A DNA stretch of 39,903 nt. It comes from a virus. Its lineage: Duplodnaviria > Heunggongvirae > Uroviricota > Caudoviricetes. Numbering within the stretch: position 1 is the first letter of the stretch; each line of letters begins with the position of its first letter. The stretch lies in IMG/VR virus record IMGVR_UViG_2654587728_000015; one strand, written 5' to 3'. The notes under the pieces were generated by a model. That model made no database searches. It was not told the origin of the DNA and worked only from the letters and a program-made list of their open reading frames with translations. Positions 1-32,961 of the stretch are shown piece by piece. The position numbers and the translations under genes were made by a program.

Positions 1-8
1 AAGAAATT

Positions 9-37
9 GGGCTTCCACCTGGGAAGCCCTTTCTTTT
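9..37. terminator. Hairpin terminator downstream of pspG (GGGCTTCC-loop-GGAAGCCC followed by TTTCTTTT), likely bidirectional
   Basis: Perfect 8-bp GC-rich inverted repeat with T-rich flank read directly; lies 3' of pspG. Confidence 0.5.
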
Positions 38-164
38 ATAGTTCGGCTGTATGTAGGGTACAGCTCGATGAATTTGTTTGACACGCAATAGTGACAGATT
101 TGATTATCAATTCCTATTTTGTTCTAAGGATAAAACCTTAGGTTGTGATCATCCGCACAATCCC

Positions 165-407
165 TTAGTAACGCCAGCGGTCATAACGCTGATATTTCGG
201 CACTTTTGGTGCTTTTATCGCCCTGATCACCCACACCACCGCAACCGCCAACAGCAGCCACGGCAGCAACTTAATCATCAATGCCAGCATACCGCCGAGG
301 AACATAAAGGCCGTCGCCACAATCAGCGCGGCGATAATACCCAGCAACGAAACACCGGTGACCATCAGCATGACAAAAAAGCCAATTACAAAAAGTAGTT
401 CCAGCAT
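165..407 (-). CDS. pspG: Phage shock protein G (host gene)
   Basis: C-terminal 80 aa of ORF 165..617 (MLELLFVIGFF...KYQRYDRWRY) is a small two-TM protein matching PspG; genomic neighbour of dusA as in E. coli; start taken at internal ATG 407. Confidence 0.85.
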   Translation of the reverse strand: MLELLFVIGFFVMLMVTGVSLLGIIAALIVATAFMFLGGMLALMIKLLPWLLLAVAVVWVIRAIKAPKVPKYQRYDRWRY

Positions 408-440
408 GATGCTCTCCCAAATATGAAATCTCTTGCTGGC

Positions 441-458
441 ATTACAAGAATCATGCCA
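441..458 (-). promoter_or_regulatory. Candidate sigma-54 type promoter for pspG (TGGCAT-N4-CTTGT on minus strand)
   Basis: Near-consensus -24 GG / -12 element about 35 nt upstream of the pspG ATG; pspG is known to be PspF/sigma-54 dependent. Confidence 0.35.
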
Positions 459-480
459 AAAATAATCTATTGATTTAACA

Positions 481-502
481 GCAAAACGCCCCGCGACGGG
501 GC
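481..502 (-). terminator. Candidate terminator hairpin after dusA (GCCCCG-loop-CGGGGC then GTTTTG)
   Basis: 6-bp GC stem followed by short U-run on minus strand, about 40 nt 3' of dusA stop. Confidence 0.35.
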
Positions 503-540
503 GCAGGGCGTGGTGAATTTGACTACTTTTTGGTGAAAAG

Positions 541-1578
541 TTAACGCTTATCCGCCACCAGTTTGAGCGCGTGTTCCAGCACATTAATGTCTGCACCCGC
601 TTTATGGGCATTTTCACTTAAATAACGCCGCCACTGCCGCGCGCCAGGAATACCCTGGAACAAGCCCAGCATATGCCGGGTAATATGGCCGAGATACGTA
701 CCCTGGCTGAGTTCACGCTCAATGTACGGATACATGGCGCGCACTACCGCCACCGGATCAGCATCAGTATCCGAGGAACCAAAAATCTCTCGGTCTACCG
801 CCGCCAGAATACCCGGATTCTGATACGCCTCGCGCCCGACCATCACGCCATCCATATGTTGCAAATGCGCTTTAGCTTCTTCCAGCGACTTGATACCACC
901 GTTAATCGACATCGTCAGATGCGGAAAGTCACGCTTCAGTTGATACACACGCGGATAATCGAGCGGCGGGATCTCACGGTTTTCTTTCGGACTTAACCCA
1001 GAAAGCCAGGCTTTACGTGCGTGGATGATGAACATCTCACACTCACCTTTGCCGGAAACGGTGTTGATGAAATCGCAGAGAAATTCATAGCTGTCCTGAT
1101 CATCGATGCCAATACGCGTTTTCACCGTCACCGGAATCGACACCACATCGCGCATCGCTTTCACGCAGTCGGCAACCAGCTGCGCATTACCCATCAGACA
1201 CGCACCAAACATGCCGTTCTGCACCCGGTCAGACGGGCAGCCGACATTCAGGTTGATCTCATCGTATCCACGCGCTTCTGCCAGCTTCGCACACTGTGCC
1301 AGCGCCGCCGGATCGCTACCCCCGAGTTGCAACGCTACCGGATGTTCTTCTTCACTGTACGCCAGGTAATCACCTTTACCGTGAATAATCGCCCCTGTGG
1401 TCACCATTTCGGTATACAGCAACGTATTGCGGGAAAGCAGACGCAAGAAATAACGGCAATGTCTGTCCGTCCAGTCGAGCATAGGAGCAATGCTAAACCG
1501 AGAATTCCAGTAAACACCAGTTTTTTCAGGCATCACGCTGGTTTGATTAATTTTTTGTGTTTCATGATTATCGTGCAT
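541..1578 (-). CDS. dusA: tRNA-dihydrouridine synthase A (host gene; 5' end is the known target of DusA-associated integrases)
   Basis: 345-aa ORF with Dus family motifs ([31 protein letters not shown]); divergent integrase immediately upstream. Confidence 0.9.
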
Positions 1579-1610
1579 TTTTGAACATTTCAGGCTATTT
1601 TTCTCGCGTT

Positions 1611-1646
1611 AGGTTCCCGCTCAGGTTCCCACGTTTTATGGGAACC
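1611..1646. promoter_or_regulatory. Three copies of GGTTCCC (two direct, one inverted) between dusA start and int start; candidate integrase-binding or int-promoter control sites within the attL region
   Basis: Motif copies at ~1612, ~1624 and inverted at ~1640, read directly. Confidence 0.3.
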
Positions 1647-1666
1647 CGAAATAACGAGGTCGTGTA

Positions 1667-2764
1667 ATGGCGTACTATAACATAGAGAAACGACTAAAAT
1701 CCGATGGCACACCACGCTATCGCTGTAATGTGATTATCAAAGAAAAAGGTGTTATCACTTACAGGGAAAGCAAAACATTCCCTAAACATGCTCATGCCAA
1801 AACATGGGGCACACAGAAAGTGATGGAATTAGATCTATATGGCATTCCATCATCAAATGCAGTTGACGGACTTACAGTCCGTGACTTACTACACAAATAT
1901 TTAAATGACCCAAATGCCGGAGGTAAAGCAGGCCGTACTAAAAGATATGTGCTGGAACTGCTTATGGATAGTGACATCTCCGCGATCAAACTATCTGAAC
2001 TGACAGAAAATGACGTAATTGAACATTGCAGGCTAAGAAACAACGCTGGCGCAGGTCCAGCAACAGTCAGCCACGATGTTAGTTATCTTGGCAGTGTTCT
2101 GGATGCGGCCAAACCTGTATACGGAATTAATTACACATCAAACCCGGCGAAAAGTGCTCGTCCATATCTACTTAAACTTGGTTTGATTGGTAAATCAAAC
2201 CGTCGTAATCGTAGACCAGCATCTGATGAACTGGACATGCTCATTGAAGGCCTTCAACAACGATCTACTCATAAATGCTCAAAAATTCCGTTCGTTGATA
2301 TCCTCAAATTTTCTGTGTGGTCCTGTATGCGAATCGGAGAAGTATGCCGGTTACGATGGGAAGATCTCGACCAGGAACAAAAATCTATACTCGTAAGAGA
2401 CAGGAAAGATCCACGCAAAAAGGAAGGCAACCACATGAAAGTAGCCTTGCTTGGGGAAGCCTGGGATATCGTCCAACGACAGCCCAAAAAATCGGAATTC
2501 ATTTTTCCATATAACAGCACTTCTGTTACTGCGGGATTTCAGAGGGTAAGAAGCAAATTAGGTATTAAGGATCTGCGATACCATGATTTGCGTAGAGAAG
2601 GGGCAAGTCGCTTATTTGAGGCTGGTTTTAGTATTGAGGAAGTAGCCCAGGTTACAGGGCATCGTTCATTAAACGTGCTATGGCAGGTATATACCGAACT
2701 GTATCCGAAATCTTTACATAATCGTTTTGAAGAGCTCCAAAGGAGCAGAAATAAGACCCCTTGA
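1667..2764 (+). CDS. int: Tyrosine-type site-specific integrase (DusA-associated integrase family likely)
   Basis: 365-aa ORF; C-terminal catalytic region with R...HDLRR...GHRS...Y pattern; located at prophage end divergent from dusA; SD ACGAGG 7 nt upstream of ATG. Confidence 0.85.
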   Translation: MAYYNIEKRLKSDGTPRYRCNVIIKEKGVITYRESKTFPKHAHAKTWGTQKVMELDLYGIPSSNAVDGLTVRDLLHKYLNDPNAGGKAGRTKRYVLELLMDSDISAIKLSELTENDVIEHCRLRNNAGAGPATVSHDVSYLGSVLDAAKPVYGINYTSNPAKSARPYLLKLGLIGKSNRRNRRPASDELDMLIEGLQQRSTHKCSKIPFVDILKFSVWSCMRIGEVCRLRWEDLDQEQKSILVRDRKDPRKKEGNHMKVALLGEAWDIVQRQPKKSEFIFPYNSTSVTAGFQRVRSKLGIKDLRYHDLRREGASRLFEAGFSIEEVAQVTGHRSLNVLWQVYTELYPKSLHNRFEELQRSRNKTP

Positions 2765-2812
2765 CACTGTTTATCCATACAGTTAAAAATAATACTGTAT
2801 ACAAACACAGTA
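2761..2812 (+). promoter_or_regulatory. SOS-regulated promoter: -35 TTGACA followed by two tandem LexA boxes (CTGT-N8-ACAG) upstream of dinI-like gene
   Basis: CACTGTTTATCCATACAGTT (~2765..2784) and TACTGTATACAAACACAGTA (~2793..2812) both fit LexA box consensus TACTGT(AT)4ACAGTA. Confidence 0.7.
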
Positions 2813-2825
2813 TAGAGGGACTTTT

Positions 2826-3074
2826 ATGCGTATTGAAATCTGCATAGCCAAAGAAAAAATGACTAAAATGCCAACCGGTGCTGTGGATGCGTTAAAGGAA
2901 GAATTAACCCGACGCATCAGTAAACGTTATGACGATGTAGAGGTGATCGTAAAAGCCACCAGCAACGATGGCCTTTCTGTTACACGCACCGCAGATAAGG
3001 ATTCTGCAAAAACTTTTGTTCAGGAGACTCTGAAAGATACCTGGGAATCTGCTGACGAGTGGTTTGTTCACTAA
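2826..3074 (+). CDS. dinI: DinI-like DNA-damage-inducible protein
   Basis: 82-aa protein with conserved DinI C-terminal motif ([15 protein letters not shown]); LexA boxes upstream; SD AGAGGGA. Confidence 0.8.
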
Positions 3075-3217
3075 TTAACACGTAAAATCGGTAACGGCTG
3101 GAAATCATTCAATAATCGCACTATCGAAAGTTCGCCAGCCAGCCGCAGCACGTTCTTGCATACGACGTGGCTGCGGCTTCCAACATTAGACAAATAACTC
3201 TTTAAATTGCTTTTAAA

Positions 3218-3781
3218 TTATTTCGTTTGAATGCCAGTAACAGGAAATCGTTTATATAGGGTTGATAGCCCAACGTTATAGATACGTGCAACATAACGCC
3301 GTGATTTCCCTGCCGCTATGAGCGCTCCCATCTGTTGCCACTGCTCGTCGCTAAACTTCGGTCTACGCCCACCAATCCGGCCTTTGGATCTGGCAATAGC
3401 CAAACCAGCTAAAGTTCGCTCGCTATTCAAATCAGATTCATACTGCGCAGCAGAAAGAATATTACGGAAATTATAGCGACCACTTGCTGTTTTCAGGTCT
3501 ACGCCATCTGTAATACTCCGAAAATTAACACCTTTTTCGTGCAGATTTTGAAACATCAATAGCGCATGCAGCACATTTCTCCCTATCCGATCTAACTTCC
3601 AGACAATCAACTCATCTCCACTTTTCATCACCGTAATTAATTCCTTTAACACAGGGCGATTAGCTGTTCTGCCACTGGCATATTCTTCATAAATTCGCTC
3701 ACAGCCAGCTGACTCAAGTGCAAGACGTTGCAACTCTGTATCCTGATGATTTGTTGATACACGAACATACCCGTAAATCAT
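3218..3781 (-). CDS. Serine recombinase, DNA invertase of the Gin/Pin/Hin family
   Basis: 187-aa ORF starting YGYVRVSTNHQDTELQ with catalytic serine, resolvase core and C-terminal HTH (VGLSTLYKRF); position after tail fibre and tfa as in Mu gin / e14 pinE. Confidence 0.9.
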   Translation of the reverse strand: MIYGYVRVSTNHQDTELQRLALESAGCERIYEEYASGRTANRPVLKELITVMKSGDELIVWKLDRIGRNVLHALLMFQNLHEKGVNFRSITDGVDLKTASGRYNFRNILSAAQYESDLNSERTLAGLAIARSKGRIGGRRPKFSDEQWQQMGALIAAGKSRRYVARIYNVGLSTLYKRFPVTGIQTK

Positions 3782-3786
3782 GAGTG

Positions 3787-3813
3787 CTTCTCCTGTTGTA
3801 AAAACAGGAGAAG
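3787..3813 (-). promoter_or_regulatory. Perfect 10-bp hairpin (CTTCTCCTGT/ACAGGAGAAG) whose 3' arm contains the invertase Shine-Dalgarno; candidate translational sequestration element
   Basis: Inverted repeat read directly; AGGAG lies inside the stem, ~8 nt upstream of invertase ATG; no U-tract after the stem. Confidence 0.35.
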
Positions 3814-3949
3814 AGGCGAAATATCACCTGATTCAGAAAAATATTTCAAAGGTTCGTTTCGAACAGGAGGAGTAGCGGAGGGCTATGTTGCTTAGTTTGA
3901 AAATAGCTGGTCTTGCTGATGCGCATTGATGTAGCAAGACCAGTATGGT

Positions 3950-4318
3950 TTAAAGTTCCGGGATGACAGGCCAGTTAACATGCTCAGGGTCGGTTGTTAC
4001 ATCAACAGCCTTAACCTGATTCTTATATAAAAGCCACGCCGAAAGTTTAGCTCTGTTGGCATCGCTGATTTCACCCAGCATCAGCTCTGTGCGCCAGTCG
4101 AGCATAATTGCATCAGCGGCGGACAGTAATCGCTGTCGCTCATTTTCAGCAGCCTGGATGAGTTGTTCATGAGTCGGTGGGGGATTAATAATTGCCATAG
4201 CCTCACTTCTGGTGATTGGCACAAGCCCTTCTTTGATAAAAGCATCCTGTGTGCCATACGCATCGTAGGCATATACGACGTTATTTTCATCTTTGTAATG
4301 CTTCATCATTGTTATCAT
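3950..4318 (-). CDS. Tail fibre assembly protein (Tfa/U-like chaperone)
   Basis: 122-aa ORF with Tfa motifs ([11 protein letters not shown]...PTHEQL...[16 protein letters not shown]); ATGA start/stop overlap with tail-fibre gene. Confidence 0.85.
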
Positions 4319-5295
4319 TTTTTATCCACCTCTACCCAGGTAACATCTGACACTGTTCCTGAAAACTGCTGCACAATATAGGTCGCACCGGCAGGAACCA
4401 TGAATGCGATAGTTGCTCTTTGCCCTGCAAGATTTGTTGTCTGAGAGCCGCGAAAATTAGCCGAATTACCATCCACATTAACGTTGGCGCTCAGAAATGA
4501 ACTACCGTCAGACAGCACCGCATTGACGCTTACAAATATGGCGAAAGACTGGCTGTTGGTGTATACGACACCGAGATTTCTAGATTTCATTCCGCATTGA
4601 CCAAACAACCCTTTCATATCTGAATAGTTTTGTGATGCAGCAAGTGATGATGCAGCAACACCAGATTCCGTCGATGTTCTGGAATCAGATACGCGGATAA
4701 TTCCCTTGTTTGTTGGGGTCGCATCATTGGTCTTGCCTTGCAACGCCTGTATATCCGCATAATTCATCGCTGCCGCTTTTGCTGTTGCAGCAAGCGTTTC
4801 AGATTCGGATACCCTTGATGATGTAAGTTGAACAATTCCTTTCTGTGTCGTAGTTGAATCCTGAGTTTTGTTTTGCAAAGATTTTATGTCCGTATAGTTT
4901 TGCGCGACAGCATTAGCTGTGGCTGCAATATCCTCTGCACCCGATACCCGCGATGACGTTAACCGGACTAAACCCACCTGTGTTGTTGATGCGTTTTTAA
5001 TACCAAGGTTTTCGAGAGCCGTTTTCACCGTGCCATCCGATTTGATATCACCAAACGGATTCTTGCGGCTTAACAGCAGCGCACGAAGCGCGGTAAGCAG
5101 CTGATCGTGCCGCGCCTTCTCCAGACTGGCACCGGATGCCTCCACCACGCTGCAAAGCTCCTCCTGCAACATGTCAAAGTAGTCATCATCCAGATCGGTG
5201 GCAGGCGTGCCGGTCTGGGGGTTACCACGGGTAAAACCGTTCTTACCCGCGCCGAACTTATCCTTCTGCGCGGTTTTCGTGTCTATACGATGCAT
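4315..5295 (-). CDS. Tail fibre protein (Mu S / e14 Stf-like)
   Basis: 326-aa ORF between gp48-like gene and tfa; internal tandem repeats; C-terminus typical of side tail fibres. Confidence 0.8.
4606..4989 (-). repeat. Three diverged tandem ~40-aa coding repeats inside the tail-fibre gene
   Basis: Repeated units [38 protein letters not shown] / [38 protein letters not shown] / [34 protein letters not shown]. Confidence 0.7.
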
Positions 5296-22903: not shown

Positions 22904-23254
22904 TCACTTCAACCGTTCACGGGCCGTCTTCGCCTTATGACACGGCCAGCACAGGCTCTGCAGATTACTGTCGGCATCAGAGCCGCCATGCGCTTTAGGG
23001 ATGATGTGATCAACGGTTTTCGCTTCACGCACCACACCGGCACGCAGGCACAACTGGCACAGTCCTTTGTCACGCTTCAACACACGCACGCGGATAACAT
23101 CCCACTTCGAACCATAACCGCGCTGATGACGGGATTGTCCTGGCTTGTATTGCTTCCAGCCTTCGCTTTTGTGGCTTTCGCAGTAGCCTGACGGGTCTGT
23201 CGTGGTATTACGGCAGCCGCGAACGCGGCAGGCTTTTGGAGTTCGAGGGGGCAT
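22904..23254 (-). CDS. HNH endonuclease (terminase-associated)
   Basis: 116-aa ORF with Cys-rich HNH motif (CQLC...VDHIIPKAHGGSD...NLQSLCWPCH); located just upstream of terS as in HK97. Confidence 0.85.
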   Translation of the reverse strand: MPPRTPKACRVRGCRNTTTDPSGYCESHKSEGWKQYKPGQSRHQRGYGSKWDVIRVRVLKRDKGLCQLCLRAGVVREAKTVDHIIPKAHGGSDADSNLQSLCWPCHKAKTARERLK

Positions 23255-24293: not shown

Positions 24294-24629
24294 TTACTCC
24301 TTCGAGCTACCAAATTTGTTACCGATTACTCGCATTGCAGCCCCACGAATAGCATCGACACCGATCAGCCCCACGCCACCACCAATGGCAACAGAAAGCG
24401 ATTTAGGCCATCCGACATACTCAAGAGCGGATGCAAAGGTCAGCGTCAGAGCGCCACATAGCAAAATCTCGAGCGTTTTTCGCTTCCAGCCACCACCACC
24501 GCCAAAATAGGCGATGCGCAAACCAGCCATAACGATCGACATAATCACTGCACCCAGCGGTGTGTCTCCACGCCACCAGCTCTGAAACAACTCCAGCCAG
24601 TCCGGCCAGGTATTTGGGTTATGAGGCAT
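24294..24629 (-). CDS. Holin (three predicted TM segments)
   Basis: ORF 24294..24725; start taken at ATG 24629 with SD GAGAG; three hydrophobic helices; immediately upstream of endolysin. Confidence 0.65.
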   Translation of the reverse strand: MPHNPNTWPDWLELFQSWWRGDTPLGAVIMSIVMAGLRIAYFGGGGGWKRKTLEILLCGALTLTFASALEYVGWPKSLSVAIGGGVGLIGVDAIRGAAMRVIGNKFGSSKE

Positions 24630-24672
24630 TTCGTCATCTCTCACCTCGCGATATTTGCGGGTGCTGTGTTGG

Positions 24673-24698
24673 AAATAAAAAGGCCACGCAACGTGGCC
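24673..24698 (-). terminator. Rho-independent terminator between methyltransferase and holin (GGCCACG-loop-CGTGGCC followed by TTTTTATTT)
   Basis: Perfect 7-bp GC stem with U-run on minus strand. Confidence 0.6.
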
Positions 24699-24705
24699 AC
24701 CAGAA

Positions 24706-25758
24706 TTATTTCCCCACCAGTTCACTTACCTCTTTCACCGTCTGATTAAACCGCTCTGACTCAAGTTCAACACCTAACGCCCGACGCCCCAGCGCCATTG
24801 CTGCTTTTATTGTGGAACCGGATCCCATAAAGAAATCAGCAACCAGATCGCCTGGTCGACTACTGGCATTGATTATTTGCCGGAGCATATCCGCCGGTTT
24901 CTCGCACGGATGTTTACCCGGATAGAACTGAACGGGCTTATGCGTCCAGACATCGGTATAAGGCACGGAGACTGATACGGAGAAATAGCGCCGGAGTGAT
25001 TTAAACTCATCCAGCAATTCAGAATATTTGCGATTCAGTGAATCATAAGATGCCACCAGCTGGTGGTGTGGTTGTTCCAATTGCTGTTCCTGAAACTTCT
25101 CTGCCGCTATACGGGAAAACAGTGCCTGTAACTTCCGGTAGTCAGCCTCATTCGGCAACTGCCACTGACTGGCACCAAACCAGTGGGAAACCATATTTTT
25201 CTTACCTGTGGCTTCGGCAATTTGTTTTGCCGTTATACCCAGTTCGGCACGAGCATCCCTGAAATACGATATCAGCGGTGCCATTATGTGCTGTTTGAGT
25301 TCCCTTTCTTTTGCCGCATAGCCGTCACTTTTGCCACGATATGGCCCATGGTAATGTTCAGCAAACAGAACGCGCTCTGTGGCAGGAAAATATGCACGCA
25401 GACTTTCTTTATTACACCCATTCCAACGTCCGGACGGCTTCGCCCAGATGATATGGTTAAGCACGTTGAAACGTTCACGCATCATGATCTCAATATCAGA
25501 TGCCAGGCGATGTCCACAGAACAGGTAAAGGCTTCCGGCAGGTTTCAACACCCGCCAGAACTGGGCCAGACAGTGATCCAGCCACTTAAGGTAATCTTCG
25601 TCCCCTTTCCACTGATTGTCCCAACCGTTGGGTTTCACCTTGAAGTAAGGCGGATCGGTAACAATCAGGTCAATGGAATCATCAGGCAGGGACTGAATAA
25701 AATGCAGGCAATCAGCGTTGATTAAATCAACACTGTTTATTTTTACAGTATTTTTCAT
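24706..25758 (-). CDS. DNA methyltransferase (N6-adenine or N4-cytosine, DPPY motif, beta-class order)
   Basis: 350-aa ORF with motif IV DPPY near N-terminus and AdoMet-binding FxGxG (FFMGSGST) near C-terminus; no adjacent restriction endonuclease. Confidence 0.8.
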   Translation of the reverse strand: MKNTVKINSVDLINADCLHFIQSLPDDSIDLIVTDPPYFKVKPNGWDNQWKGDEDYLKWLDHCLAQFWRVLKPAGSLYLFCGHRLASDIEIMMRERFNVLNHIIWAKPSGRWNGCNKESLRAYFPATERVLFAEHYHGPYRGKSDGYAAKERELKQHIMAPLISYFRDARAELGITAKQIAEATGKKNMVSHWFGASQWQLPNEADYRKLQALFSRIAAEKFQEQQLEQPHHQLVASYDSLNRKYSELLDEFKSLRRYFSVSVSVPYTDVWTHKPVQFYPGKHPCEKPADMLRQIINASSRPGDLVADFFMGSGSTIKAAMALGRRALGVELESERFNQTVKEVSELVGK

Positions 25759-25907
25759 GGATCAGTAAGCGTAACTCTGGTAGGCTCACTCTGCTTTTGC
25801 GCTAAAGCAGTGGGCCGTGGTTCGCTTGTGACCAGTAAGCATGAGCGAATGGCTGGCAGGTGCTACCAACACCCACCAGCCGCCCATTTTCACAAATTAA
25901 AAGCCCT

Positions 25908-26126
25908 TCATTGCTGAAGGCGTCTGTAACAGCCGAACTGGTAATCTGCCAGCCCCGCCATAACCAGCTGGGTCAGTATTAACTGACAGCGTTCGCGTGA
26001 AAGGTATGTGTTTTGTGCTATCTCCCCGACTGTTGCCGGTTCGACGCTTAATTCATTAAAAACAACTTTCGCCGTTTCTGTCATATCTAGCTGTTTTAGC
26101 ATGTCTTTTTTCCTTCTGGTTAACAT
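25908..26126 (-). CDS. Small hypothetical protein, first ORF downstream of the late promoter
   Basis: 72-aa ORF with ATG start; weak RBS; function unknown. Confidence 0.45.
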   Translation of the reverse strand: MLTRRKKDMLKQLDMTETAKVVFNELSVEPATVGEIAQNTYLSRERCQLILTQLVMAGLADYQFGCYRRLQQ

Positions 26127-26221
26127 GACATACCAATAACTCTTGTCTAAAAAGCCAGCAAGATAAAAAGTCAGTATTCACGACCACCAGCGTGTTTACC
26201 GTACTGCCAACATCAAGGCAC

Positions 26222-26246
26222 AAAAAAACCCGCTCAGCGGCGGGTT
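26222..26246 (-). terminator. tR'-like rho-independent terminator downstream of the late promoter
   Basis: Minus strand AACCCGC-loop-GCGGGTT followed by TTTTTTT. Confidence 0.7.
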
Positions 26247-26292
26247 CTTAAATCTTATCAACGGTAGACATACAAAGCCCATCGTTGGGAAA

Positions 26293-26321
26293 ATCTTATC
26301 CATATTTTTTGAAAAATGCAA
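26293..26321 (-). promoter_or_regulatory. pR'-like late promoter (-35 TTGCAT, 17-nt spacer, -10 TAAGAT) about 65 nt upstream of tR'-like terminator; expected Q-utilisation region
   Basis: Hexamers read on minus strand just downstream of Q gene; arrangement mirrors lambda pR'-qut-tR'. Confidence 0.5.
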
Positions 26322-26352
26322 GCATCATGTCGCCATCTTCGGCGAAAATCAT

Positions 26353-27111
26353 TTATCTTGTCACTTTTCTCAATTGTGTCTCTGCATATGCTTCTTCCTG
26401 CCAGCACTTTGTAACCAGTTTATCAATGACATCTGCATATCCTTTGTACCACTGATAATCCGTCAAATCTGGTACCAGTTTCTGTACATGATGCCGCGCC
26501 AGTGTGGTTGGTAAACGGCTAAACCGGTTTCCATTGCAACGTCCACAAATCTTATAAACAGGCGTGCCATGAAGCCGGGTCCTTTTTTCATCCAGGACAA
26601 TACCTTTACCCTTACACCCTCTGCACGCTGTGCTGACTTCTCCCTTACCATGACAATGCTGACATAGTTCCTTCACCCACTCCTCCTTGATAACAGATTC
26701 ACCGCTTCTGGAGTGTTTCACCACTTCGCGCAATACATTATGAAATCCAGTACCTGCACAATGCTCACAGCGAGCCTTACTTGCCGCAGACCTGGAATAA
26801 TCAGCAAAGGCAAAATTCACAAGGTAAGGGATGATCTGTAACCGGGTTTCTTCACTCAATTTATTCAATGTCGGGTTATCCAGTGCCATCGCGTAATTGA
26901 GCAGACCTTCAATCGCAAACTGAGGATCCTGAACACCAACTTTTGCCAGGAATAAGGCAAAACCCAGTGGTGCTTTCGACTGCACCATCCCCTGCGCAGC
27001 CATCACATCCGTAATCGTTAAACCACCAGAGCCTGTCGCCGGTGCGTCATCGCTCAATTTTGGAGATTTTGGGGAGTAATATTTTGGTAAGGCTTCAAGG
27101 TTCATGCTCAT
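26353..27111 (-). CDS. Q: Late-gene antitermination protein Q-like (Cys-rich zinc-binding region)
   Basis: 252-aa ORF with CEHCAGTG...CQHCHGKG...CRGCKGKG...CGRCNG motifs; located immediately upstream of pR'/tR'-like unit and lysis genes. Confidence 0.7.
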   Translation of the reverse strand: MSMNLEALPKYYSPKSPKLSDDAPATGSGGLTITDVMAAQGMVQSKAPLGFALFLAKVGVQDPQFAIEGLLNYAMALDNPTLNKLSEETRLQIIPYLVNFAFADYSRSAASKARCEHCAGTGFHNVLREVVKHSRSGESVIKEEWVKELCQHCHGKGEVSTACRGCKGKGIVLDEKRTRLHGTPVYKICGRCNGNRFSRLPTTLARHHVQKLVPDLTDYQWYKGYADVIDKLVTKCWQEEAYAETQLRKVTR

Positions 27112-27118
27112 TCTCCAC

Positions 27119-28114
27119 TTACGCCAGTACGCCTATTGCCAGCGCACGATCGATAAAACGAAATATCAGCTCCAGCTGGGAGCCATACTTCTCTTCAAAT
27201 GCCACGGTATCCGCATGCAGCTCGTCGTGATGCTTTCTGCACAAAGGCAACACAAAGAGGTCATGCGCTTTTGTACCCATTCCCCCCTGACCGTGGCCTA
27301 TCAGGTGGTGGGGATCATCAGCGGGCTTTCCACAACATGCACACGGCTGTGTCTTAACCCAGCGCGTGTACTTTTCATTAACCCAGCGGCGACGTTTTGG
27401 GCGTAACATAAAAGACTCCGGCGACTCCGGATCCACTTTCAGCGCCAGCACCTTTTTTGCCTTATCCTGGATGATGCTGGTGGCAGGAACCGAAGGCACA
27501 AGGTCACTTTCCCGGGTGACAGACGGCACAACAGGCTTTGGTAATCTCAGTGCCTTACGGGCTGCACTTTCCGGTAAGGCATCCGCCAGGTCATTACGAA
27601 TCAGCCACCAGCACAGTTCCGGCATTGTCACAACGTGACTATCATCAAAACCGAGATCCCGACGCACAACAGACAACACCCAGCGGGCACAGTTATCCGT
27701 TGCCATTGATTCCAGCCGTTCCGTGAACTGATCGCGCAGCTGGTTATCACAGTGCCAGCACAGACGGATTGCGCCCGGAGCGTGTCGCATTGTGGTCATG
27801 TTCTCGCTGTGCCAGTCGGAATGAGGCCACTGGCAGCCTTTTTCACGAAGTAACCAGCTTTCAAGACATTCCACGCCACCAGCACGACGGATCACTGCCT
27901 CATTGCGGAACACGGCCCGAACAGCAGGATCATCCGCCAGCGGTTGTGATGCCGCGGGAACGGCACCACTGGCGAAAGATGAATAACGTTCCGGCTCAGG
28001 CTCCAGCAGTACACGCCCCTGCATAAACAGGGGCATCAGCTCTGAACCTGGTCTGAACAATACGATCCCCATACGCGGGGCTATTTCAGGGGTCAGTAGT
28101 GCTCTCACGGTCAC
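27119..28114 (-). CDS. DUF968-family prophage protein with C-terminal HNH-like zinc-finger
   Basis: 331-aa ORF ending CACCGKPADDPHHLIGHGQ...CRKHHDELH; apparent GTG start. Confidence 0.6.
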   Translation of the reverse strand: MTVRALLTPEIAPRMGIVLFRPGSELMPLFMQGRVLLEPEPERYSSFASGAVPAASQPLADDPAVRAVFRNEAVIRRAGGVECLESWLLREKGCQWPHSDWHSENMTTMRHAPGAIRLCWHCDNQLRDQFTERLESMATDNCARWVLSVVRRDLGFDDSHVVTMPELCWWLIRNDLADALPESAARKALRLPKPVVPSVTRESDLVPSVPATSIIQDKAKKVLALKVDPESPESFMLRPKRRRWVNEKYTRWVKTQPCACCGKPADDPHHLIGHGQGGMGTKAHDLFVLPLCRKHHDELHADTVAFEEKYGSQLELIFRFIDRALAIGVLA

Positions 28115-29322: not shown

Positions 29323-29645
29323 ACTTTCAGGCCTCTCTCATGTAACCAGTGGGCTGCACGCAGCCTGGCGTTTTCCTCACCGGCAAGCAGTGAGCGGATA
29401 ATCCCGACCGCCTCGCTGTCGTCGTCCTTCACCGCGGTATGAAGAGTGATACCCCGGGCCACGCCACGCTTTATCGTGATGACTCCTTTTTTCTCCAGTG
29501 CGCGAAGATGTTCCACCGCTGCATTCACTGAACGGTATCCCAGCATGGTTGCCACCTCCTGATTGGTTGGCGGGAAGCCACGTTCTTTCTGGTAAGAAAT
29601 CAGCATATCCAGCACCTGCTGCTGGCATTGAGTTAACGTCGTCAT
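29319..29645 (-). CDS. LexA N-terminal DNA-binding-domain-like protein lacking the S24 peptidase domain
   Basis: 108-aa ORF; pattern LT..QQ.V.D.I...GFPPT..E.A..LGYRS.NAA.EHL.AL.KKGVI.I..G.ARGI.L parallels the LexA winged-helix domain including the recognition helix. Confidence 0.7.
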   Translation of the reverse strand: MTTLTQCQQQVLDMLISYQKERGFPPTNQEVATMLGYRSVNAAVEHLRALEKKGVITIKRGVARGITLHTAVKDDDSEAVGIIRSLLAGEENARLRAAHWLHERGLKV

Positions 29646-30295
29646 GCCGCCATCTCCCTGACAAGTTTTTCCGCCTGCTGGCGAACCTGCGCCAGAAACG
29701 CCTCACCACATGCCTCAAGTTCATCGCGCCCGATGTAGCTGATTGCCGGTCCCTTCCAGGTCTTGTCGAAAACAGCAATAGCACCAGCGAAGAAAGCGCC
29801 TGTCGGCACCTGCTTCTCATCCTTCGGGATAAACCAGGCAGGCAGTTCAAAACCAATACGCCCGCGAATAAAAGCAATATGGTCTGCATCTTCCGGCCAC
29901 CAAACTTCGCTGGTGGCAGCTTTGATCAGGAAAACATAGCGCCCGCCTTTATCACGCATAGCACTGGCATGTTTCATGATGTAACGCATGCCGGTGATGT
30001 ATTGCCCCTCATGCTGACTGGCGCGGCTGTACGGGGGATTACCAAAGGCAGCACCTTTAAGCTCCGCAAGACGTTCTGACCAGTCATGCGCCAGCGCGTT
30101 GTCTTCCGCAGTGTAATAAGCGGCACATTTGGCGTTATCACCATCAGTAAACAGATCCAGAACAAACGGGCCAAACAGGGTGTTAATTCCCCAGAAAATG
30201 TTGTCCGGCGTGCGCCACTGATCGCCCACTTCCTTCAGTTCATGGGCTGGTTTGTTCCGCAGCTCCACCAGCGCCTGGCAATATTTATTACTCAT
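29642..30295 (-). CDS. Phage Dam-type DNA N6-adenine methyltransferase
   Basis: ORF 29642..30328 with ATG at 30295; motifs WRTPDNIF and NPPY. Confidence 0.8.
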   Translation of the reverse strand: MSNKYCQALVELRNKPAHELKEVGDQWRTPDNIFWGINTLFGPFVLDLFTDGDNAKCAAYYTAEDNALAHDWSERLAELKGAAFGNPPYSRASQHEGQYITGMRYIMKHASAMRDKGGRYVFLIKAATSEVWWPEDADHIAFIRGRIGFELPAWFIPKDEKQVPTGAFFAGAIAVFDKTWKGPAISYIGRDELEACGEAFLAQVRQQAEKLVREMAA

Positions 30296-30783
30296 TAAGC
30301 CCCCACGTAATTCCCTGACAGATACCACTCTTCACCCGATGCAGCGCGCTTGCTGCTTTTCCGTAAGCACCGCTCACGATGCGCCAGAAAATTGTTTCGT
30401 TCTGGCTGGGAGTGGCTTTCACGGAATGCCTCCATCCACACCGTTGCAGCTCGACGGAATAAGCCCCTGGACTCCAGTTCTTCAGCCTGGCGGGTCAGGC
30501 ACAAAATCACCCGGGGGTCGTTAGTGCCGACATAGAAATTGCGCACAGGTCTGGTTTCACGAACAGATTGTGGTTCCGGCTCCTGCGCTCTCTCAGTCAG
30601 GCGCGGGAAATGTCTGCGTGTATCTCCTTCACAACGGTGAGCCACACGCCCACTCTGACGTAACTTGCTTGCTGACTGCAGAACGCGCTGCCGTGAGTAA
30701 CCTGCAAAAGCATCCGCAATGTCTCCGGAAGTACACCCCGGATGGGCTTCAATGAATTTCTGAACTTCATTCAAAAGACTCAT
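30295..30783 (-). CDS. Hypothetical early protein with possible PerC/ANR-like C-terminal motif
   Basis: ORF 30295..30789 with ATG at 30783; segment AEELESRGLFRRAATVWMEAF resembles ANR/PerC signature; assignment tentative. Confidence 0.45.
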   Translation of the reverse strand: MSLLNEVQKFIEAHPGCTSGDIADAFAGYSRQRVLQSASKLRQSGRVAHRCEGDTRRHFPRLTERAQEPEPQSVRETRPVRNFYVGTNDPRVILCLTRQAEELESRGLFRRAATVWMEAFRESHSQPERNNFLAHRERCLRKSSKRAASGEEWYLSGNYVGA

Positions 30784-32046: not shown

Positions 32047-32961
32047 CTAGTTAAAGGCATTGATGTATGCCTCTTTGAACTGGGCAGCACGTTTACCCGT
32101 GAAACCCATAGCAAGAAACGCAAAGCCGTCGCGGGTTATTTGGTAGCAAGGAAGTTTGCGACCTGTGCAATCAGTGTAATCACTCACCGAAAAATTGCGG
32201 GCAGTGAATGATGCTGAGCATTCAAGCGTGCGGATCTTTTTCAGTACATCGTCATGACGTTTGGAGAAGAAGTTGGCAACAGCCAGGGATGAAGTAACAG
32301 CCTGACCATCAACGATGGCAATTTCAGGTTGAGTGAGGGTTGGGATCGTAGCCATGATGGCAGCCTCTTTGGTGATTTTTAATAACTCACCACCAAGGCT
32401 TTCCACGACCTTATTGGTGGTGAGACGTACAGGGGTGGAAATACCGGTCACCAAAGAACCCGGCCCAACCGAAGTTGGCCCTGTACGCCCCACCATAATT
32501 TGGGCGTAATGCTGCTCATGACACAAAAAAACCGCAAGAGCGCGGTTGTGCGCTTTGGTGAATTCCGGGTTTCCACGCCCGGCACCCGTTTTATAAGGTG
32601 CCTGAACAGTGTAACGTCCCGGAATGGCAGAATCAATGTGCTGGTGGTCCTTCACACTCAACAAAATCACGCCTGAATTTCCACAAAGGACTAAAGCACT
32701 CATGCGGGTAGTCTTTGCGAAGATAGATAACGCGCTGTGTTTCTGGTTCCCAACGAATAACATGGACATAAAGCCCTCTTCCGTCACGAAACCAGCGGTT
32801 AAGTTCCTGCACAACTCGCCCCCCACAGTCAGGTAAAGTTCTCTGTGGTTACTTACAGCCAGGTGATTTGGTAATCTGCATTCATGCCGTAACAACAAGT
32901 GTTCAGCGACACTGACCACCAGCTGTTGCGACAAACGGTTATTTGCCGTTAAACTGTTCAT
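32047..32961 (-). CDS. Rha/AntA-family phage regulatory domain protein (domain in C-terminal ~100 aa; N-terminal 200 aa unknown; possible internal start at 32355)
   Basis: C-terminal segment ...SSLAVANFFSKRHDDVLKKIRTL...YQITRDGFAFLAMGFTGKRAAQFKEAYINAFN matches Rha-type domain; internal SD AAGAGG plus ATG at ~32355. Confidence 0.55.
   Translation of the reverse strand: MNSLTANNRLSQQLVVSVAEHLLLRHECRLPNHLAVSNHRELYLTVGGELCRNLTAGFVTEEGFMSMLFVGNQKHSALSIFAKTTRMSALVLCGNSGVILLSVKDHQHIDSAIPGRYTVQAPYKTGAGRGNPEFTKAHNRALAVFLCHEQHYAQIMVGRTGPTSVGPGSLVTGISTPVRLTTNKVVESLGGELLKITKEAAIMATIPTLTQPEIAIVDGQAVTSSLAVANFFSKRHDDVLKKIRTLECSASFTARNFSVSDYTDCTGRKLPCYQITRDGFAFLAMGFTGKRAAQFKEAYINAFN

Follow-up and report, generated by a model that had tools for sequence, protein, structure and literature searches.

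Organization of the interval from Q to the lysis genes

The 39,903-nucleotide (nt) viral DNA IMGVR_UViG_2654587728_000015, called here the window, is overall an SfV/SfII-like myovirus prophage. Between its late antiterminator gene Q and its holin gene lies a cassette made of a small open reading frame (ORF) and a gene for an orphan adenine DNA methyltransferase. All genes of this region are on the (-) strand and follow one another from 5' to 3' in the order Q, promoter-like region, tR' hairpin with a run of seven T, small ORF, spacer of 149 nt, methyltransferase, hairpin terminator, holin, GH24 endolysin and Rz. Assignments by Pfam, PHROGs and NCBIfam are concordant throughout, save that NCBIfam has no model for the small ORF. 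Over 3 kb the region shares 98.5% nucleotide identity with Shigella phage SfV. The cassette and the elements that surround it are the following.

26353..27111, (-) strand: antiterminator Q, 252 aa (PF03589, E=9.5e-54; phrog_127)
26287..26321, (-) strand: putative pR'-type late promoter, with -35 TTGCAT at 26321-26316, a 17-bp spacer and -10 TAAGAT at 26298-26293
26281..26286, (-) strand: putative sigma-dependent pause element AACGAT, +1 to +6 by analogy with lambda
26222..26246, (-) strand: predicted intrinsic terminator tR', AACCCGC-CGCTGA-GCGGGTT followed by T7
25908..26102, (-) strand: small winged-helix protein (SfV orf47), probably 64 aa, from the ATG at 26102 with ribosome-binding site AAGGA; an alternative 72-aa reading starts at 26126
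25759..25894, (-) strand: structured 5' leader RNA of the methyltransferase gene, 136 nt with five helices P0 to P4, followed by UGAUC (25764-25760) and the AUG
24706..25758, (-) strand: orphan beta-class N6-adenine DNA methyltransferase of the M.EcoGII family (SfV orf48), 350 aa (PF01555, E=1.5e-42, residues 29-341)
24673..24698, (-) strand: second predicted intrinsic terminator, GGCCACG-TTG-CGTGGCC followed by TTTTTATTT, with a perfect 7-bp GC-rich stem 8 nt past the methyltransferase stop codon

We hold it probable that the region is the leader of the late operon in an SfV-type lambdoid prophage and carries a common late-expressed cargo module, which would act by the full mechanism proposed below. 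The cassette itself is already known and very common: it corresponds to SfV orf47/orf48, its enzyme belongs to the M.EcoGII family and it occupies the moron slot behind pR'. The novelty of the arrangement that was implied in the initial annotation of this DNA is thus lost, since the arrangement is annotated in SfV, the pR' moron site is established (PMC4104026; PMC3851460) and the enzyme family is characterised. The leader RNA in front of the methyltransferase gene appears to be the one seemingly undescribed element of the region.

Late promoter and terminators

Q is homologous to the lambda Q of solved Q-loading complexes (PDB sequence search: 7ubm/7ubn E=4.4e-38; 4mo1 E=3.2e-25) and is a member of the lambda-Q family that carries an inserted CxxC zinc-ribbon segment. 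Downstream of its gene the pR' region aligns column by column with those of lambda and five relatives. The window reads TTGCAT, 17 nt, TAAGAT, TTTCCC, AACGATGGG, and lambda reads TTGACT, 17 nt, TAAATT, TGACTC, AACGATGGG. By homology this region would function as a promoter and, by analogy with lambda, its 17-bp spacer would be the Q-binding region and the transcript would start (+1) at about 26286. The hexamer AACGAT of the putative pause element is the same in the lambda alignment. A generic sigma-70 scan did not flag pR', because the -35 is weak and matches the consensus at 3/6 positions.

The U-run of tR' ends at 26222, about 65 nt from the putative +1, and the leader with tR' folds at -21.8 kcal/mol (z=-2.6). 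The terminator is kept in 6 relatives and is annotated in the records of SfV and of phage Ayreon. It was not scored in a generic terminator scan, probably because the flanking A and U runs can lengthen the stem and so consume the U-tail. The initial annotation had described a pR'-like promoter with a tR'-like terminator about 65 nt downstream; the lambda alignment and the hairpin with T7 at 26246-26222 confirm both. Together they would delimit a short, roughly 65-nt RNA comparable to the lambda 6S RNA and to StxS. In lysogens pR' is constitutive yet terminated, and the short product in Shiga toxin (Stx) phages is the small RNA StxS (PMC7547250). The tR' hairpin is found twice in phage Ayreon, around an inserted AT-rich ORF of 141 aa (positions 3444-3487 and 4123-4161 of locus L002), and likewise stands on both sides of an extra AT-rich ORF in mEp460 and in Stx2c phages. 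It seems that new modules either insert into the late leader at this terminator or carry a copy of it with them.

The second terminator, proposed at the outset as a perfect one just before the holin ribosome-binding site, stands at 24698-24673 as the best-scoring terminator-like site in the 5-kb scan, with a fold of -12.5 kcal/mol. It is likewise annotated in the SfV and Ayreon records. Its position is kept in relatives that have different stems there, and a Serratia phage has another terminator at that place. Both terminators are kept in relatives, and more distant phages have other hairpin-plus-U-run sequences at the same positions; this retention of position despite a swap of sequence argues for function.

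The cassette is an exchangeable block in the stx slot

BLAST comparison of the window with the fetched loci delimits a single block of homology that extends exactly from the tR' hairpin (26246) to the holin ribosome-binding site (24642). The same boundaries hold in Ayreon, in phage cdtI and in one E. coli prophage, all of which have Q genes and holins unrelated to those of the window. Upstream of the block the Q gene can be of the PF03589 type, of the PF06530 type, of the DUF1133 type or encode one of the short Q proteins of about 120 aa. Downstream there are lambda-type holins, class II holins, other holin families, tRNA genes or stx2. The block of terminator, small ORF, methyltransferase and terminator is present at 3419 places in 2394 of the 5426 complete E. 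coli genomes, with at most 8 copies per genome, so that nearly half of these genomes carry a copy of the M.EcoGII type.

The identification of this position as the slot that carries stx is well founded: Stx2c phages and the Stx2a phage WGPS2 have the same small ORF and methyltransferase gene, and after them tRNAs and stx2AB. Among phages, the copies closest to M.EcoGII itself (93% identity) are in Stx2a phages and, in WGPS2, the one annotation examined among them, the order is Q, small ORF, methyltransferase, tRNAs, stx2AB. Phages of the 933W type, which carry Stx2a, retain a C-terminal remnant of the methyltransferase between Q and the tRNA/stx2 genes (34 residues matched, 82-85% identity); in Stx2 phage 86 the remnant is an annotated ORF of 153 nt (positions 2962-3114 of locus L009). 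This remnant suggests that the stx2 region was assembled beside, and partly over, the cassette.

The content of the interval between Q and the holin gene S varies among relatives. The prophage of CH10508, a close relative, has Q, tR', an unrelated ORF of 67 aa, a terminator and the holin without a methyltransferase gene, while in O157 strain TX 754-1 the methyltransferase is truncated and accompanied by other ORFs. Since relatives exist without the enzyme and with other cargo, it is not a core gene common to all of them in a slot devoid of terminators. That the block can follow several Q types unrelated to one another, and can be followed by different holins, by tRNAs or by stx2, supports the reading of the initial annotation that this is Q-dependent cargo in the stx slot. 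Dependence on Q, which would follow by analogy, agrees with the silence of M.EcoGI and M.EcoGII in lysogens and with the termination of pR' transcripts there. The insertion site of morons downstream of a Q-antiterminated pR' has been described (PMC4104026), and the Q-to-lysis segment of the sister phage SfIV has been described as a moron (PMC3851460).

An orphan methyltransferase of the M.EcoGII family

The 350-aa DPPY methyltransferase recognized in the initial annotation is borne out by its PF01555 match. Its motifs follow the beta-class order, with TDPPYF at residues 34-39, a central recognition domain and the FxGxG motif as FFMGSGST at residues 309-316. With M.EcoGII it shares 81% identity along the full length (349 aa, 90% positives), and with the reconstructed ancestor Anc291 89%; both reference sequences were machine-read from the supplement of PMC11551740, so that a few letters may be wrong. 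The differences from M.EcoGII, 19% of the residues, are concentrated in the recognition domain and in the linker. The genomic context of M.EcoGII was judged from phage copies with 93% identity, the protein database being clustered at 90% identity.

M.EcoGII is borne by a prophage of E. coli O104:H4 and methylates adenine in any context, in vitro also in RNA (Murray et al. 2018, PMC5778455). Anc291 has been expressed and is active and largely non-specific, and the whole M.EcoGII clade, reconstructed ancestors included, is reported to be largely sequence-non-specific (PMC11551740). M.EcoGI and M.EcoGII are unexpressed in the lysogen and toxic upon expression (PMC5778455, PMC12707154). The discoverers of M.EcoGII proposed that it is switched on at prophage induction (PMC5778455), a proposal repeated in a 2025 review. 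The location of M.EcoGII-type genes behind tR' in a Q-dependent late leader would provide a concrete mechanism for their silence in the lysogen.

As the initial annotation had claimed, the enzyme has no partner endonuclease: no restriction endonuclease gene lies beside the methyltransferase gene in any locus examined, those of other genera included, and here its neighbours code for the 64-aa winged-helix protein and the holin. The enzyme is thus an orphan, and an assignment to a Type II restriction-modification system on the basis of an adjacent cognate endonuclease fails. No canonical Shine-Dalgarno (SD) sequence precedes the gene, and the search for internal sigma-70 promoters on the coding strand brought up no convincing one.

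A structured leader RNA precedes the methyltransferase gene

The spacer between the small ORF and the methyltransferase gene measures 146-154 nt in Enterobacteriaceae and Erwiniaceae, whatever lies upstream. Its conservation equals or exceeds that of the coding sequence on either side, and it folds with unusual stability (-58.7 kcal/mol, z=-3.1). Helices of the 136-nt leader that it contains are placed as follows.

25886-25882 with 25815-25811, (-) strand: P0
25881-25851, (-) strand: P1, a hairpin of 12-13 bp
25849-25841 with 25829-25821, (-) strand: P2
25810-25804 with 25797-25791, (-) strand: P3
25789-25783 with 25770-25765, (-) strand: P4

From the raw MAFFT alignment RNAalifold derived a poor consensus, since loops of unequal length in the hairpins had been misaligned. 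The structure was therefore built by hand from the folds of individual sequences and from column statistics, and then tested. On the MAFFT alignment of 58 sequences, 84.8% of the cells are paired in the P0-P4 model versus 32-42% when the partners are slid, and 21 of the 41 pairs show changes on both sides versus 5-12 in the slid versions; none of 500 shuffles reaches the observed values. In an alignment based on a covariance model, compensatory changes are found in 27/41 pairs, with a covariation score of 0.182 against at most 0.076 in controls. P1 alone occurs as 37 distinct sequences, each forming a hairpin of 9-13 bp at the same place (for example GGCUGG/CCAGCC, GACUGU/ACAGUC, GAUCGG/CCGAUC or GGCGUAC/GCACGCC). 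The leader thus has the generic mark of a structured cis-regulatory RNA, pairing that is kept by compensatory substitutions beyond controls.

The element is spread across Enterobacterales: it recurs among 80 loci from other species and is conserved from Escherichia to phages of Providencia, Hafnia and Serratia. Photorhabdus and Xenorhabdus have a shorter version, and two loci are without it. Searched with the covariance model, the window yields a single hit at 25894-25753, which scores 149.6 bits; among the other fetched loci there are 73 strong ones of 51-158 bits, and every hit is on the strand of the methyltransferase gene. In loci with annotated or called genes, as in genome loci in which the start of the tblastn match to the methyltransferase is known, the hits end at the start of that gene. 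In viral contigs, retrieved by a 14-mer scan, an ORF of the M.EcoGII family comes directly after the leader motif in 54/54 hits; 26 of the 80 loci listed in that scan are without the motif and are presumably chance matches. Rfam 15 has no match to the leader at E<=1 in the region of the window, nor at E<=0.1 in six diverse loci.

Counts of wobble pairs left the strand of the fold undecided (199 G-U versus 214 A-C cells), and the sense strand is preferred for its fixed register to the start codon and for the direction of late transcription. That the leader codes for a peptide was also considered and rejected: from the conserved AUG in AAAUGGGCG the frame runs for 3 to 43 codons in the different sequences, and no peptide is conserved. 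Readings of the leader as an ops/JUMPStart, boxA/boxB or put-like element were dropped as the sequences do not match.

The invariant UGAUC directly before the methyltransferase AUG (25760-25764) contains a GATC Dam site. It is complementary both to the 3' end of 16S rRNA and to a conserved G(G/A)UCA within the leader (25829-25833). From these complementarities it is conceivable that the two motifs form an SD/anti-SD pair acting as an on/off switch of translation. The trigger could be a metabolite such as S-adenosylmethionine (SAM) or S-adenosylhomocysteine (SAH), the methyltransferase itself, which acts on RNA too, or the small winged-helix protein.

A weak match to the leader model (25.8 bits) is present in phage lambda at 45018-45155 (positions 1219-1356 of locus L007), 30 nt upstream of S. 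It keeps P1, P2 and several junction motifs and has lost P0, and it looks like the degenerate relic, within the lambda late leader, of a lost methyltransferase cassette. We advance tentatively, and with somewhat less than even confidence, that the leader represents an undescribed class of cis-acting RNA dedicated to methyltransferase genes of the M.EcoGII family, which would gate translation of a toxic enzyme and of which lambda would retain the relic upstream of S.

The small ORF codes for a winged-helix protein

The ORF that the initial annotation had placed between tR' and the methyltransferase gene is there, although its product is probably 64 rather than 72 aa long. The shorter reading is favoured by the AAGGA ribosome-binding site at the ATG at 26102, by the start given in the SfV record (195 nt, 64 aa) and by the alignment to phrog_331 (E=1.9e-34), which begins at residue 9 of the 72-aa translation. 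Pfam matches to TrmB and DprA_WH are both weak. The protein has 285 database homologues across Enterobacteriaceae, many of them named "TrmB family transcriptional regulator" by NCBI. Its AlphaFold2 (AF2) model, with a pLDDT of 89, has three helices and a beta-hairpin wing and predicts a stand-alone winged-helix protein. Compared with structures of the PDB, the model gives generic winged-helix matches only (MarR, IclR, dimerisation domains of O-methyltransferases, SelB), none with an E-value <1e-3. The size and position of the small ORF fit those of the controller (C) proteins of restriction-modification systems, but its fold is of the MarR/IclR/TrmB winged-helix type and not the Xre-type helix-turn-helix of C proteins.

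Two alleles of the small ORF, about 52% identical to each other, are paired with the same methyltransferase. Among 78 genomic loci from other species, 53 have a detectable homologue upstream of the methyltransferase gene and the other 25 do not, which makes it a frequent and not an obligatory partner. A candidate extended -10 promoter, conserved in relatives, lies just upstream of the 64-aa ORF at 26149-26122 on the (-) strand (TAGACA, 16 nt ending in TGT, CATGTT); it matches 8/12 consensus positions, with a TGn.

The terminator scan also returned a weak hairpin over the stop codon.

25920-25905, with a tail to 25895, (-) strand: weak hairpin resembling a terminator, across the stop codon of orf47, CCTTCA-GCAA-TGAAGG and then GCTTTTAATTT

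Its fold of -9.4 kcal/mol is not significant. A conserved third terminator at this place was rejected, as a U-run follows the hairpin in just 8/57 related loci.

Lysis genes and other features of the window

The genes downstream of the block form a lysis cassette (phrog_126, phrog_90 and phrog_214), which begins with the holin gene.

24642..24663, (-) strand: hairpin over GAGG upstream of the holin gene, CACCCGC-AAATATC-GCGAGGTG
24294..24629, (-) strand: holin S of the lambda family, 111 aa (TIGR01594, E=7.1e-37; PF05106)
24290-23814, (-) strand: endolysin (GH24)
23830-23438, (-) strand: Rz, after the endolysin gene

The hairpin upstream of the holin gene occupies the position of the lambda sdi structure. 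It folds in all relatives, with a compensatory version, CACTTCCG/CGGAGGTG, in the relative locus L004.

A DUF968 protein with a weak HNHc_6 nuclease match is encoded directly upstream of Q at 27119-28114 (-), and is found again in many, but not all, loci with the methyltransferase cassette. An HNH endonuclease gene lies at 22904-23254 (-) between Rz and the gene of the small terminase subunit, which is the customary site of the HNH protein that assists cos cleavage in HK97-like packaging modules. The lambdoid early region is like those of mEp460 and phage 1720a-02. Its nin-like part codes for a second methyltransferase, of the phage Dam type, at 29642-30328 (-) (PF05869, E=1.1e-45). Further into the early region Rfam identifies, both above gathering score, a C4 antisense RNA at 32413-32500 (-) (84.5 bits) and an isrK small RNA at 32525-32601 (-) (67.9 bits). 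Both adjoin a gene for an Ash/Rha-type regulator, and the C4/isrK pair is an antisense immunity element of the P1/P7 style. Positions 1-5000 of the window have no match to the structural modules of SfII, SfI or SfV, which cover 5002 onward; they may hold tail-fibre genes, accessory genes or host DNA.

Proposed mechanism and alternatives

In the mechanism that we favour, pR' would fire constitutively and RNA polymerase would pause at AACGAT; without Q it would stop at tR', giving the RNA of about 65 nt. After induction, Q would load onto the paused polymerase and render it resistant to terminators. The modified enzyme would then pass tR', the weak hairpin that follows the small ORF and the strong terminator that follows the methyltransferase gene, to reach the genes of the holin, endolysin, Rz and the structural proteins. 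The cargo expressed on the way would be the 64-aa winged-helix protein and the orphan methyltransferase of the M.EcoGII family. Made late, this enzyme would modify adenines of progeny DNA with little or no sequence specificity, and the released phage would be protected in advance against many adenine-sensitive restriction systems of its next host. In the lysogen the toxic methyltransferase would be kept off by the terminators, the lack of a canonical SD sequence and the structured leader. The two to three upstream terminators, the lack of a convincing internal promoter and that of a canonical SD sequence would fit tight silencing of a toxic enzyme.

Several observations weigh against this mechanism. 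The prophage has an early methylase of the Dam type, whose presence would give protection at GATC sites without need of the late enzyme. The central target-recognition region of the late enzyme differs from that of M.EcoGII at about a quarter of the positions, so that its specificity may be relaxed rather than absent. The candidate promoter at 26149-26122 could give the small ORF some expression independent of Q. Finally, the GC content of the block (48.2%) is close to the phage average (window 51.3%, Q 46.4%, holin 53.3%), and the block thus has no compositional signature of a recent moron.

A different view takes the cassette for an autonomous moron whose winged-helix gene, and perhaps the methyltransferase gene, are transcribed from their own promoter in the lysogen to alter host physiology by lysogenic conversion or epigenetic regulation, the terminators merely insulating the lysis genes. 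Among the properties that define morons, presence or absence among relatives at the same position is observed here, and deviant base composition is not. A classic moron comes with a promoter and a terminator; here a terminator stands at each end of the block, the TGn extended -10 candidate is conserved in relatives, and between clades the small ORF is more conserved (92-97% identity) than the methyltransferase (about 81%). However, this candidate is weak, with its 8 matches in 12, and none better was found, the methyltransferase gene lies behind a further hairpin and lacks a canonical SD sequence, and M.EcoGI and M.EcoGII give no methylation in lysogens and are toxic when expressed. Together with the GC content, this makes an autonomous moron unlikely. 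Unlikely too is that the late-expressed methyltransferase serves something else than broad anti-restriction, with a defined specificity or another task such as marking DNA for packaging or replication, countering the HNH or DUF968 nuclease of the phage or modifying RNA. In the alignment with M.EcoGII divergence is greatest in the target-recognition region, M.EcoGII methylates RNA too in vitro, DUF968/HNHc_6 proteins are often encoded just upstream of Q in methyltransferase loci and an HNH gene lies beside that of the small terminase subunit. Nevertheless, over its full length the enzyme is 81% and 89% identical to enzymes whose lack of specificity has been shown, within a clade that is reported, down to its ancestors, as largely non-specific (PMC11551740). 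Moreover, Klebsiella loci have the cassette without DUF968 and no nuclease is fixed beside the methyltransferase gene.

It could also be supposed that the hairpins are recombination scars or RNA-stability elements and that the late transcript runs from pR' to the lysis genes regardless of Q. The location of tR' exactly at the junction of a mosaic segment, its doubling around the inserted ORF in Ayreon and also in mEp460 and Stx2c phages, and its lack of a score in the generic scan are compatible with this. But both stems are GC-rich and directly followed by U-runs of 5 to 7, a terminator is retained at both positions even where its sequence is replaced, and the logic of Q, pause site and terminator is conserved with lambda. 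As an unterminated constitutive pR' would moreover express the holin in lysogens and be lethal, we regard this supposition as highly improbable.

The practical value of these results lies in the link between the tR' position of M.EcoGII-type genes, their presence in nearly half of complete E. coli genomes and the remnant in 933W-type phages, which we did not find stated together in the literature searched. Enzymes of the M.EcoGII family, which is characterised, are sold as a reagent. A leader that does regulate translation of a toxic non-specific methyltransferase could matter more: it would add a new cis-regulatory RNA to organisms that have been studied very thoroughly, and might then serve as a handle for controlling M.EcoGII expression in biotechnology.

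Comparison with known systems

The closest known system is SfV (GenBank U82619.2 / NC_003444), which has the same genes in the same order, the window showing only point differences. According to its record, Q is followed by a "putative rho-independent terminator", then orf47 and orf48, another such terminator, S, R, Rz and Rz1. The original record labels orf47 and orf48 "unknown", and in the RefSeq re-annotation orf48 is a DNA methyltransferase. The resemblance to M.EcoGII extends to the size of the enzyme (349-350 aa), the beta-class order of motifs, the prophage location and the orphan status. The closest phage copies of M.EcoGII, too, lie between Q and either stx or the lysis genes, and the same small ORF and leader precede them.

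The likeness to the late unit of lambda (Q, pR', Q-binding element, pause, tR', 6S RNA) lies in the homologous Q, the alignable promoter, the identical AACGAT, the terminator shortly downstream and the lysis genes beyond. The terminated RNA of lambda is 194 nt long versus about 65 nt here; Q has the additional zinc-ribbon insertion, and at least one further strong terminator precedes S. The leader resembles riboswitches and translational operators by its invariant junctions, its helices that vary yet remain paired and its fixed register to the start codon. It differs from riboswitches and from the lambda S sdi in that the methyltransferase start codon is not obviously sequestered in the consensus fold, and no Rfam family matches it.

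Lastly, the cassette compares with the morons of the pR' slot (Juhala et al. 2000, as cited in PMC4104026; SfIV, PMC3851460; stx). Like them it consists of genes with no part in lysis or morphogenesis, located between pR'/tR' and the holin, bounded by terminators and exchanged among phages. Unlike classic morons it has no convincing promoter of its own and no deviant GC content. Since its product would serve the lytic phage rather than the lysogen, we prefer to call it a late-expressed cargo than a moron of lysogenic conversion.

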